Positions 47,276 to 48,900 of a stretch of DNA of 64,000 bases are shown here, piece by piece. Under the pieces are notes generated by a model, which ran no database searches, was not told the origin of the DNA, and saw nothing but the letters and a program-made list of their open reading frames with translations. Source of the DNA: an uncultured Gemmatimonadales bacterium (GTDB lineage: Bacteria > Gemmatimonadota > Gemmatimonadetes > Gemmatimonadales > GWC2-71-9). How positions within the stretch are numbered: the stretch's first letter is position 1; every line of letters starts with the position of its first letter. The stretch spans positions 668,674 through 732,673 of the forward strand of contig CAWCFX010000001.1 of the NCBI GenBank assembly GCA_963795085.1, given 5' to 3'. The position numbers were made by a program, and so were the translations under genes.

Positions 47276-48340
47276 TCAGGGGGTCGGCAGGGTGGGCCAC
47301 TGCTGGGTAACGCAATGAATGGCGCCCAGGCCCCAGACCAGGTCGGTGCAATCGATCCCAACCACGCGGCGTCCCGGGAAGAGGTCCTGTAACGCCTGCC
47401 GGGCGACTTCGTCCCCCGGGGAGCGGTAGGTGGGAAGGAGGACCACCTTGTTGGCGATGTAGAAGTTGGCGTAACTGGCGGGGAGGCGCTGGTCTCCCTG
47501 GTAAAGCGGGTTCGGCATCGGCAACGTCACCACCCGGAGCGGCCGGCCGTTCTGGTCCTTCATGGACGACAACCGCTGGAGATTCTCCTGCAGCGGGGCG
47601 TAGTTGGCATCGGTCGGGTCCGGTTCCACGACGGTGACGACGGTGCGGGCATCGGTAAAGCGGGACAGGTCGTCCACATGTCCGTCGGTGTCATCTCCTT
47701 CGATACCGTCCCCCAGCCACAGAATGTGGCGTACTCCCAGGTAGTCCTTCAAGTACTGTTCGATCTGCCCGCGGGACAGGTCCGGGTTGCGGTTGGGATT
47801 GAGCAGGCACGCCTCGGTCGTGAGCAGGGTGCCCGCACCGTTGAGGTCGATCGACCCTCCCTCCATGATGATCCCCGGATGAAAGACCGGGATCCCGAAC
47901 TCGGCGCCGATCCGGCTGGGAATCACGTCGTCGAGATCATAGGGCGGATACTTGTTCCCCCAGGCATTGTATCCCCAGTCCACGATCGCCTCTTCGGCCT
48001 TCTCCTCCCCCCGGCGCTGGACGAAGATGGGCCCGTGGTCCCGGCACCAGGCGTCGTTTGTGGGGTTATGGTGAAAGAAAACCCGGTCCTTCGGGATCTC
48101 CGGGTGCTGGAGGAAGCTCCGTGCCGCAGCCTCCTCTTCGGGGCCGGCCACGTTGATGTGGACTTCCTCGTGGGGCGCCAGGTGACGGACCATTTCACCG
48201 AAAATGGCGGGCACCGGACCAAAGCGGCCCGGCCAGCTGGCTTCCTTGTGGGGCCATGAGAGCCAGGTACCCCGGTGAGGCGCCCATTCAGCCGGCATGC
48301 TGAAGCCGGCTGGGCGCTTCGCATCGGCTTGGCCGGTCAT
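47276..48340 (-). CDS. aguA: agmatine deiminase
   Basis: FSMPAEWAPHRGTWLSWPH, DAWCRDHGPIFV, GGSIDLNGAGTLLTTE, DGHVDD, and the catalytic Cys in GAIHCVTQQ. Confidence 0.9.
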   Translation of the reverse strand: MTGQADAKRPAGFSMPAEWAPHRGTWLSWPHKEASWPGRFGPVPAIFGEMVRHLAPHEEVHINVAGPEEEAAARSFLQHPEIPKDRVFFHHNPTNDAWCRDHGPIFVQRRGEEKAEEAIVDWGYNAWGNKYPPYDLDDVIPSRIGAEFGIPVFHPGIIMEGGSIDLNGAGTLLTTEACLLNPNRNPDLSRGQIEQYLKDYLGVRHILWLGDGIEGDDTDGHVDDLSRFTDARTVVTVVEPDPTDANYAPLQENLQRLSSMKDQNGRPLRVVTLPMPNPLYQGDQRLPASYANFYIANKVVLLPTYRSPGDEVARQALQDLFPGRRVVGIDCTDLVWGLGAIHCVTQQWPTLPTP

Positions 48341-48769
48341 TGCCGATTGCCGATCAAAGATTGCCGATCTGCCTGCGGTGCGCTCTCGGCGGTCCGATGG
48401 CTGGCCACGAAGATCGAAATCAGCTCCTCAGTCTCATCCCGAAGGTCTAGCACCATTCTTCTGTTCTATCCTCGATTGTGCTTTGAGCAGGTCACGCCAG
48501 AACTGGGTTTCGTCGCACTCCTCGATGACAATACCCGGCGACTAACTCCTTCCTGGAGCGGGCACGGCAGGTTGACCGATAATTAGCCGCAACACTCGTT
48601 CTACTACGGAGCAACTGGTCGCGGATCACCCGAACGGCGGAACTATATGCTGATGTTTCGGAAAAGTGAGGACGTCGAGGGCAAGCTGTTTGGTCCTGTC
48701 TCTGAGCAGGCGGCGTTTTTCGGCAGAAGTGAGACCCGGGAGGAGGCTGACTTCATCCCGATCCATCAT
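48337..48769 (-). pseudogene. four-helix-bundle protein gene (23S rRNA intervening-sequence protein family, TIGR02436-like), with at least 3 frameshifts
   Basis: Minus-strand pieces lie in three frames. Piece 1 is MMDRDEVSLLPGLTSAEKRRLLRDRTKQLALDVLTF. Piece 2 is SETSAYSSAVRVIRDQLLRSRTSVAANYRSTCRARSRKELVAG. Piece 3 is IVIEECDETQFWRDLLKAQSRIEQK. Piece 4 is (M)VLDLRDETEELISIFVASHRTAES...IGNRQ-stop. The QLLRS.TSV.ANYR...RARS...F and DET.FW motifs are characteristic of the family. Its stop TGA overlaps the aguA ATG (ATGA). Confidence 0.7.
48339..48373. repeat. heptamer array (ATTGCCG)n, five units (three perfect)
   Basis: attgccg attgccg atcaaag attgccg atctgcc, starting inside the aguA start codon. 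Confidence 0.85.
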
Positions 48770-48856
48770 CAAGAGGCGCCAGTACCTCCAGGTGATAACT
48801 GCCTGGTCAACAAGCTAAAGTCTTACCACCACTTTACGAAAATACGCATCTTTCCT

Positions 48857-48900
48857 CGGCAATCGGCAATCGGCAATCGGCAATCGGCAATCGCTAATCG
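48857..48900. repeat. heptamer array (CGGCAAT)n, five perfect units plus one degenerate; inverted relative to 48339-48373
   Basis: cggcaat x5, then cgctaat cg. The degenerate unit contains the aguB stop codon (TAG, complement of 48894-48896). Confidence 0.9.

Follow-up and report, generated by a model that had tools for sequence, protein, structure and literature searches.

What is a broken gene for a small four-helix-bundle protein doing between an aguB-like and an aguA-like gene, both of the polyamine pathway, and why are its two ends built from tandem heptamers that are the reverse complements of each other? The question is raised by a stretch of 64,000 nucleotides, referred to here as the window, from the assembly of an uncultured Gemmatimonadales bacterium (GCA_963795085.1, contig CAWCFX010000001.1, positions 668,674 to 732,673 of the forward strand). 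A preliminary description, made from the letters of the window, likened the insert to the intervening sequences (IVSs) of 23S rRNA that carry genes of the same protein family. That the insert is a four-helix-bundle cassette is near certain. Our favoured reading, to which we assign a probability of roughly 0.55, is that it represents an IVS-like cassette that would be looped out of the aguB-aguA transcript and that has decayed in this genome; the mechanism that we propose for it, taken alone, we put a little short of even odds.

The insert and its broken gene

The order along the minus strand is the aguB stop, about six GATTGCC units, a leader of 84 nt, the broken four-helix-bundle gene, about five GGCAATC units and the aguA start (Table 1). 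The aguB gene ends in GAC GAT TAG, with the TAG (48896-48894, minus strand) inside the first array unit, GATTAGC. The 3' arm reads GCAGATC GGCAATC TTTGATC GGCAATC GGCAATG; its last unit contains the aguA ATG (48340-48338), with which the stop of the cargo overlaps as ATGA (48340-48337), and the arm also encodes the C-terminus of the cargo, ...RQSLIGNRQ. One array therefore supplies the aguB stop and the other the aguA start, as had been read from the letters. The block has a GC content of 54.6%, compared with 65% in aguA and aguB and 67.5% over the whole window; the earlier figure of about 50% was too low.

Both arrays were recovered by Tandem Repeats Finder (TRF), which reported 4.9 copies of ATTGCCG at 48339-48373, degenerate with 67% matches, and 5.4 copies of TCGGCAA at 48856-48893 with 100% matches, the latter array extending to 48900. 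An inverted-repeat search agreed that they are mutually reverse complementary, perfectly so over 16 nt and to 87% over 30 nt. The dimer GATTGCCGATTGCC of the GATTGCC unit has seven matches in the window when up to two mismatches are allowed, against 0.74 expected; none of 100 shuffles reached seven, and all matches are confined to the junction arrays. Neither tblastn nor the pattern count found further four-helix-bundle genes or GATTGCC arrays in the window, which holds one such locus and one such array pair.

In the minimum-energy fold of the minus-strand RNA the two arrays pair with each other, giving helices of 18 and 14 bp, at -61 kcal/mol, that are somewhat longer than the 17 and 11 bp that had been counted by eye. 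In this fold two letters of the aguA AUG, the A and the U, are base-paired, and the aguB UAG sits at the base of the stem. Reading the hairpin as an intrinsic terminator was ruled out, as no U-tract follows the 3' arm.

The cargo is spread over three reading frames: one covers about 48748-48660 and 48535-48485, another 48644-48537 and the last 48465-48337. Stitched together, the pieces match the TIGR02436 profile with 53.5 bits (cut-off 24 bits; E 2.3e-14) at positions 3-107 of 109, so that the whole profile is covered and the earlier assignment to this family is borne out. The score against PF05635, 29.2 bits, is just under the gathering score of 33.8 bits. Intact homologues of the stitched protein (P0001-P0003) are 142-153 aa long and at most 60% identical over 92% of the length; one of them, the orthologue P0001, reaches 84.4 bits against TIGR02436 and has a precomputed match to PF05635. 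A profile of the subfamily (A1) matches PDB entry 2RLD, a five-chain entry, at 3.8e-31.

Members of the TIGR02436 family have an intact open reading frame (ORF) of about 110-150 aa; in the window copy the frame is disrupted by three indels. At least three had been anticipated, and alignment with the intact orthologues places a deletion of 1 nt, a deletion of 5 nt and an insertion of 1 nt. The exact base of the insertion is uncertain because the region is poorly conserved; the tblastn segments end at 48485 and start again at 48465 or 48444. Their three frames are consistent with the three indels of the DNA alignment. The 5-nt deletion lies outside any homopolymer and is not an error of the homopolymer type. 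Three indels within 300 bp, one of them of 5 nt, next to uninterrupted neighbours argue for a real pseudogene, and on its sequence we regard the window copy as a pseudogene of a TIGR02436 / PF05635 family member. Programmed frameshifting was considered and rejected, given three separate shifts that include a 5-nt deletion and orthologues that are uninterrupted.

It is almost certainly wrong to see the arrangement as chance or as an assembly artefact. Tandem repeats can confuse assemblies, and one Gemmatimonadota metagenome-assembled genome (MAG; L171, GCA_039932125.1) has a contig that ends at 2900, 18 bp past the aguB stop and at the expected start of the array, which suggests that such arrays break short-read assemblies. 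However, the pattern count lies far above the shuffles, and the same architecture is found in independent assemblies and samples, a cross-sample recurrence that effectively refutes an artefact. On an independent Logan contig with an identical aguA, zero genes are called in the upstream 545 nt, consistent with a genuinely broken ORF.

The names of the flanking genes are, judged from profile scores, family-level assignments. The aguB-like protein matches TIGR03381 over its full length with 306 bits, under the equivalog cut-off, and the proteins of its 90%-identity cluster bear the names N-carbamoylputrescine amidase or Gemmatimonadota carbon-nitrogen hydrolase, which place the genome in Gemmatimonadota. 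The aguA-like protein has a full-length match to TIGR03380 of 283 bits and scores 302 bits against NF010070, both under the cut-offs. The identities given in the preliminary description hold at family level but not as equivalogs. An Rfam scan of the window returned a single tRNA and zero rRNA.

Table 1. Positions of the junction features, of the indels placed against the orthologues and of the neighbouring array pair, in window coordinates
Feature	Position	Strand	Details
aguA-like gene	47276..48340	minus	agmatine deiminase family, PAD_porph; 354 aa
3' arm on the transcript	48339..48373	minus	degenerate (GGCAATC)~5; TRF period 7
Pseudogene of the four-helix-bundle family (TIGR02436 / PF05635)	48337..48772	minus	from translations, hidden Markov model, intact homologues and tblastn
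Insertion of 1 nt (interval)	48444..48485	minus	alignment A2, about column 479; tblastn frame change
Deletion of 5 nt	48535..48536	minus	between GTCGCCG and GGTATTG; alignment A2, columns 414-418
Deletion of 1 nt	48667..48668	minus	relative to intact orthologues; between CCTC and ACTTTTCC; alignment A2, column 281
Leader, 5' arm to start of the four-helix-bundle gene	48773..48855	minus	poorly conserved; from alignment with orthologues
5' arm on the transcript	48856..48900	minus	GATTAGC then (GATTGCC)x5; TRF period 7
aguB-like gene	48894..49772	minus	N-carbamoylputrescine amidase family, CN_hydrolase; 292 aa
Array pair without a gene	49790..49950		(CAGTGGGT)x3.6 at 49790-49817 and (CTGTCCCA)x9.2 at 49877-49950; TRF

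Orthologues and turnover at the aguB-aguA junction

The intact proteins P0001, P0002 and P0003 are encoded on metagenome contigs L001, L002 and L003. In L001 and L003 the cassette lies between the CN_hydrolase (aguB) and PAD_porph (aguA) genes, and L002 is without the aguB side. The aguB stop falls in GACGATTGA and is followed directly by (GATTGCC)n, a leader of about 100 nt and an intact four-helix-bundle ORF. The C-terminus of this ORF, …NRQSAIGNRQ, is a translation of (CAATCGG)n, and the aguA start overlaps it as ATGA. L001 can be aligned with the window across the entire 1.4 kb at 72.5% identity, and the cassette has hence been inherited vertically.

Among the orthologues the arrays are the best-conserved part, at 88-97% identity; the ORF reaches 50-73% and the leader 15-49%. 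The 5' arm of the window is 88-95% identical to the arm of L001 and L003, and its 3' arm only 72-81% identical to the orthologous arms, which are themselves 88-97% alike. In the window genome, then, the ORF is inactivated and the 3' arm is beginning to degenerate, while the 5' arm is intact. As the orthologues have conserved arms and an intact ORF, the decay is specific to the window genome. The suggestion that the unit is now decaying is therefore right for this genome, and possibly for L015, but not for the orthologues.

Relatives of the junction were collected in a metagenome scan with the aguA of the window, which gave 80 loci. Where there is no insert (L107, L096, L088, L093, L126), the two genes touch or overlap, their spacers being 0-27 nt long. 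In at least 12 relatives the spacer measures 100-160 nt and consists of a complete stop-hairpin-start structure of inverted tandem 7- to 9-mers that holds no gene. The units are GGTGAAC/GTTTACC in L086 and L090, GGTGAGC/GCTCACC in L110, GGTGAAA/TTCACCC in L111, 9-mers in L099 and L118 and of the GATT-core type in L108; L100, L101, L106 and L115 are further examples. Similar gene-less array pairs lie downstream of aguA in relatives, where both aguA and aguB can be flanked by such pairs. It had been considered that arrays might pre-exist at this spacer without the gene and occur there at random. The first part is true of many relatives; the second is not, because the arrays form complete stop-hairpin-start structures and their unit types also flank four-helix-bundle genes elsewhere.

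Other relatives carry different cargo. In L084 and L168-170, whose aguB DNA is 80-82% identical, the junction holds a different, intact four-helix-bundle gene that is antisense to the operon and has arms of the octamer type; this cassette has zero nucleotide similarity to that of the window. In L015 (763-1146 and 2270-2806), a Gemmatimonadales MAG, the GATTGCC cassette has the opposite orientation with respect to aguB and aguA and is apparently frameshifted, and a second four-helix-bundle cassette, with the units AGATTGA / AATCCTC, lies directly beyond aguA. More distant relatives have classical NIAEG-type TIGR02436 genes with other units, intact in L130, L142 and L149 and frameshifted in L148. 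The spacer of L129 (1985-2505) contains a GxxExxY gene (TIGR04256, 133 bits). The aguB-aguA spacers of L132, L145 and L163 hold an element of about 150 nt that resembles a miniature inverted-repeat transposable element (MITE), with the termini GTCATTGCGAGG...CCTCGCAATGAC.

The aguB-aguA junction attracts several kinds of small insert, and these comparisons show it to be a recurrent landing site at which cassettes are gained, flipped, gutted and replaced. The inverted cassette of L015 and the different cassettes of close relatives point to dynamics at the level of DNA. The preliminary description had proposed a mobile or excisable RNA-level cassette; events at the DNA level are visible in the inversion and the replacements, but nothing supports excision at the RNA level, and a comparison of G.U with A.C pairs in the arms gave no sign of selection on the sense RNA.

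Arrays beside four-helix-bundle genes in other phyla

The association between arrays and gene was followed in a survey with the subfamily profile, taking one genome per species, in which 80 loci were kept and arrays were called by TRF. The phyla include Bacteroidota, Acidobacteriota, Gemmatimonadota, Ignavibacteria, Planctomycetota, Verrucomicrobiota, Desulfobacterota and others. Arrays lie within 450 nt upstream of the gene in 64 of the 80 loci, within 250 nt downstream in 69 and on both sides in 58, and the units of the two arms are reverse complementary, with at most one mismatch, in 45 loci. Their density is 2.33 per kb beside four-helix-bundle genes, 11-fold the 0.21 per kb found elsewhere in the same loci. 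All 16 additional four-helix-bundle genes inside the fetched loci carry arrays, as do four copies on viral contigs.

The period is 7 in 121 of 154 arrays and 8 in 24, the median arm measures 32 nt, and the copy number peaks at 4.3-4.8 units (72 of 151 arrays). The unit itself varies by cassette (GATTTTA, GATTTCA, GATTGCC, GATTTCG and several octamers), even between two cassettes that lie 1.5 kb apart in one genome. The two arms vary together: 34 of 55 unique unit pairs are complementary, where permuting the downstream arrays among the loci gives an expectation of 5.0 and a maximum of 11 in 2000 permutations. A polar core is shared: among the unique 7-mers, GATT occurs in 24 of the 41 upstream and AATC in 26 of the 39 downstream. 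The link between tandem arrays and four-helix-bundle genes that had been noticed at this single locus is thus real and general.

Very long arms also occur. L080 has 47 and 55 copies of an octamer (2044-2422 and 2851-3285), L027 has 17-31 copies of ATTGCGG, and in L053 and L018 the four-helix-bundle genes are likewise flanked by very long arrays. The arrays of L080 and L027 indicate that arms can expand well past the usual 32 nt. On the phage-like contigs L165 / L166, arrays such as (GAACGTA)n recur between genes (about 1453-1594, 2331-2363, 2857-2888 and 3009-3040), each then followed by a GC-rich hairpin (GGGGCGGCAAAGCCGCCC) and a motif containing TTGAC, as if they belonged to a repeated intergenic module.

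Could the array hairpins be an older, independent spacer element, similar to the short tandemly repeated repetitive (STRR) sequences of cyanobacteria, in whose loops four-helix-bundle genes, and now and then other small genes, lodge without a functional tie? We consider this quite unlikely. The gene-less stop-hairpin-start structures in the aguB-aguA spacer of relatives are what it would predict, as are the similar pairs after aguA in relatives and before aguB in the window, the GxxExxY gene in the spacer of L129 and the gene-less STRR hairpins documented in cyanobacteria (PMC2670836). It does not account for the presence of arrays at nearly all sampled four-helix-bundle genes, with the 11-fold enrichment, or for an ORF that fits the loop to within tens of nucleotides. 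The GATT-type unit also tracks the subfamily across phyla, so gene and arms would have been inherited together. Furthermore, the gene-less units GGTGAAn and GATTGAA flank four-helix-bundle genes elsewhere (L167, L108), and these shared units suggest that the gene-less forms may be deletion derivatives.

The pair before aguB in the window (Table 1) lies upstream of that gene, in the divergent spacer to an ORF of 408 aa. Its octamer arrays are imperfectly complementary and 59 nt apart, with a fold of -88 kcal/mol and a z-score of -2.0, and it is probably another array hairpin of this type, one that has no cargo. The annotated N-terminus of the 408-aa ORF would be a translation of the array (PLSHCPTV repeats).

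A second possibility is suggested by the number of units. The arrays may be binding sites of a pentameric four-helix-bundle protein, in RNA or single-stranded DNA, with about one heptamer per protomer, and by binding one arm the protein would regulate its own cassette and also govern the downstream start codon, situated in or beside the 3' arm. The peak at 4.3-4.8 copies, which corresponds to five GATT cores in 72 of 151 arrays, fits this idea, the entry for the closest solved homologue, 2RLD, comprises five chains, and a homopentamer is reported for the S23p protein of Xanthomonas (PMC4990558). Three bases of the unit are variable but the GATT/AATC core is kept, along with its polarity, and the downstream start codon abuts the 3' arm. 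Nevertheless we hold the idea to be highly improbable. It is the arm length of about 31-37 nt that seems to be conserved and not the number of units; arms of 8- or 9-mers keep the length with fewer units, and for this reason five units for a pentamer was dropped to a minor rival. The arrays also persist where the gene is dead (the window, L015 and L148) or absent, and cassettes of the classical subfamily use unrelated units.

The 58 two-armed loci correspond to 29 independent genomic contexts, as one Flavobacteriia site accounts for 21 of the loci. In 16 of the 29 contexts no more than 10 nt separate the 5' arm from the stop of a co-directional upstream ORF, and in 15 the same holds for the 3' arm and the start of a co-directional downstream ORF. 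Counted by locus, both flanks are co-directional in 35 of 58 and a single locus, L015, is fully antisense. The ATG of the four-helix-bundle gene usually lies 0-70 nt past the 5' arm, and its stop lies 0-40 nt ahead of the 3' arm or within it. The cassette replaces the spacer of an operon junction, and standing in its place, the stem would join the upstream stop to the downstream start.

A 23S rRNA context was sought with Rfam in the 20 loci without clear flanking ORFs, and none was found, only a tRNA in L049. This locus, from Opitutales, has a 25-nt direct repeat, ATTGAACTGGCGGAGAGGGAGGGAT, at 2404-2428 and 2940-2964 that brackets the four-helix-bundle cassette and is a duplication of the 3' end of the neighbouring tRNA-Ser(CGA) gene (2947-3036, minus strand). 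The junction lies within the T-arm sequence GGGATTCGAA, where a GATTCGA unit is also present, and the cassette looks like the product of integration at the 3' end of the tRNA. When flanking direct repeats or target-site duplications were sought in the 58 loci, the longest words shared by the flanks did not exceed those of permuted controls; L049 is the lone exception noticed.

These observations bear on a third explanation, that the cassette is a mobile foldback element at the DNA level. Its arms would be terminal inverted repeats for recombination that is host-encoded or assisted by the four-helix-bundle protein, it would move among operon junctions, tips of rRNA helices and tRNA ends, and the RNA stem would be a by-product. 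The antisense cassette of L084 and L168-170, in relatives with such similar aguB DNA, could be explained in this way, as could the NIAEG-type cassettes of the distant L130, L142, L148 and L149, which use other units. The inversion in L015 is what recombination between inverted arms predicts, the L049 cassette is bounded by a direct duplication, and the arms show no G.U asymmetry. The GC content of the cassette lies 10-13 points under that of its flanks in L001, L003, L084 and the window, and 7-8 points in L130; one protein subfamily travels with GATT-type units across phyla of very different GC. Against this, the cassette has no transposase or integrase, flanking direct repeats do not rise above chance in the 58 loci, and there is no second GATTGCC array in the window. 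An intact ORF has been retained in orthologues over a long time, across flanks of about 72-80% nucleotide identity, and the bias in operon orientation, 35 loci against 1, would not be expected under free neutral inversion. On balance we think this explanation unlikely.

Two further repeats were seen in the window. A tandem heptamer/14-mer array, 4.7 copies of CAGAGTGCAAAGTA, lies at 12391-12457, 8 nt past the 5' end of a tRNA-Pro(GGG) gene (12310-12383, minus strand), and no inverted partner of it was detected. At 15084-15290 a unit of 101 bp occurs twice in tandem (84% matches, TRF score 302).

A proposed looped-out cassette and its relation to known systems

We return to the reading of the insert as an IVS-like, looped-out cassette. 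The cassette is made up of a first arm of tandem heptamers, about 32 nt long, then a short leader, the four-helix-bundle gene and a reverse-complementary arm, and would be co-transcribed with aguB and aguA. On the transcript the arms would pair, and the resulting interrupted stem of about 30 bp would loop out the insert, such that the aguB UAG and the aguA AUG meet at its base much as they do in the insert-free relatives. By unwinding the base of the stem, a ribosome that terminates at aguB could then make the aguA start accessible; where the copy is intact, a ribosome that reads the four-helix-bundle ORF through the 3' arm to the ATGA might do likewise. The long stem would also be a plausible substrate for RNase III, the cleavage of which would release the four-helix-bundle mRNA. 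The comparisons establish how the cassette is built and placed, that it is conserved and general, and that it turns over; pairing in vivo, translational coupling and RNase III cleavage we infer by analogy with the 23S rRNA IVSs that carry four-helix-bundle genes.

Several observations weigh against this reading. The z-score of the whole 586-nt fold is weak, at -1.4. Complementarity between the arms is often no more than 80-90%, and variant units stand at positions that do not mirror each other. Non-Watson-Crick positions of the arms show no asymmetry, with 64 G.U and 47 A.C on the sense strand, and the gene-less junction hairpins fold slightly better in antisense (11 of the 14 strongest). As both tests are unsupportive, and if anything of the opposite sign, we make no claim of selection at the RNA level. 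A plain stem also leaves the GATT...AATC polarity unexplained. Finally, intact copies such as those of L084 and L168-170 are antisense to the operon, so the four-helix-bundle gene has no strict need of the operon transcript.

A broader view would unite several of these elements, and we offer it tentatively, with only a modest chance of being correct. Four-helix-bundle cassettes, ORF-bearing 23S IVSs and gene-less STRR-like hairpins may be one widespread family of foldback elements that colonise stop/start junctions, the tips of rRNA helices and tRNA ends, from which they would be looped out harmlessly and where they would be repeatedly replaced. The four-helix-bundle protein, presumably a pentamer, might recognise the GATT-core arms of about five units and serve in maintenance, spread or processing.

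The family TIGR02436/PF05635, very large and of unknown function, is present in many copies per genome and known mainly from 23S IVSs and as a relative of Avd. A fixed architecture, with inverted arms of about 32 nt and a GATT core between a stop and a start, gives the family its first concrete and testable partner. The window copy is a decaying example, yet it exposes a strikingly regular architecture that spans phyla, through which the function of this orphan family and the origin of IVSs and STRR hairpins can be approached by experiment. The architecture suggests that the IVSs of rRNA are a special case of a general operon-junction cassette. It also provides the STRR hairpins, still described in 2009 as being of unknown function (PMC2670836), with a possible origin or at any rate a relative.

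There are practical consequences too. Such arrays break assemblies, may pass for other classes of repeat and yield spurious C-terminal tails with a 7-aa period on annotated proteins; tails of this kind in database proteins include RQSAIGN, PHSALRT, VPRSAFR and LNVERST. One protein of the aguB 90% cluster, P0072, has 329 aa against 292. Its extra length may be due to read-through of the stop into a downstream array, which is possible because such arrays are open in all frames.

The preliminary description had thought the link between arrays and four-helix-bundle genes undescribed. We found no general account of arrays flanking these genes in the searchable literature, although prior informal knowledge is still possible, and no published link between STRR sequences and four-helix-bundle genes; the heptamers of the Coxiella IVS, however, have been remarked upon (PMC4990558).

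How does the cassette compare with known systems? Like the REPIN-RAYT and foldback-type transposons it has one small gene, inverted repetitive arms and gene-less hairpins elsewhere, and the arms of eukaryotic Foldback elements are likewise made of tandem subrepeats. Unlike in those systems, no transposase or nuclease motif can be recognised in the four-helix-bundle protein. The unit of the cassette recurs in only 11 of the 39 other arrays of the same loci, and target-site duplications, as in MITE and foldback elements, do not exceed chance in the loci, L049 being the one exception noticed.

The protein also resembles Avd of diversity-generating retroelements, a nucleic-acid-associated accessory protein of a homologous pentameric four-helix-bundle fold family (PMC10053308). 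The neighbours of the cassette are, by contrast, aguB and aguA, with no adjacent template/variable repeat pair; no reverse transcriptase adjoins the cassette, the rest of the window not having been searched exhaustively. The Avd entries of PHROG gave zero matches for P0001 and a weak match for a classical-type protein (E 7e-4), and PADLOC gave zero matches; both resources are uninformative for this subfamily.

STRR heptamers form hairpins between the cyanobacterial hupS and hupL genes, where they were proposed to stabilise the transcript or to couple translation (PMC2670836). The cassette is similar in that tandem 7-bp units form a hairpin in the spacer of co-transcribed genes, and the gene-less hairpins of relatives look alike. 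STRR sequences are described as gene-less repeats of heterocystous or filamentous cyanobacteria, whereas the hairpin of the window carries a four-helix-bundle gene and belongs to a Gemmatimonadota genome, in a design found in at least eight phyla.

The cargo is shared with the ORF-bearing 23S IVSs of Coxiella burnetii, Leptospira and others, which RNase III excises and in which an S23p / PF05635 gene fills the loop of a stem some 28-32 bp long; complementary termini surround the insert here as well, in the form of the 18- and 14-bp helices. In the Coxiella IVS the S23p ORF, a four-helix-bundle protein, occupies the loop of a 28-bp terminal stem whose 5' side contains tandem GACAGAT heptamers in a strain-variable number, and RNase III cuts in mid-stem, at the first repeat. 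The RNA element persists there even as its ORF undergoes reductive evolution (PMC4990558). The window copy, with its dead ORF and retained arms, parallels this last feature. The arms of the window type are, by contrast with those of Coxiella, wholly made of tandem heptamers, with a GATT/AATC core common across phyla. The host also differs, being an mRNA operon junction with protein-coding flanks and not helix 25 or 45 of 23S rRNA; because it does not lie within rRNA, the cassette is not itself a 23S IVS, and would be its counterpart between the stop and the start of two operon genes.

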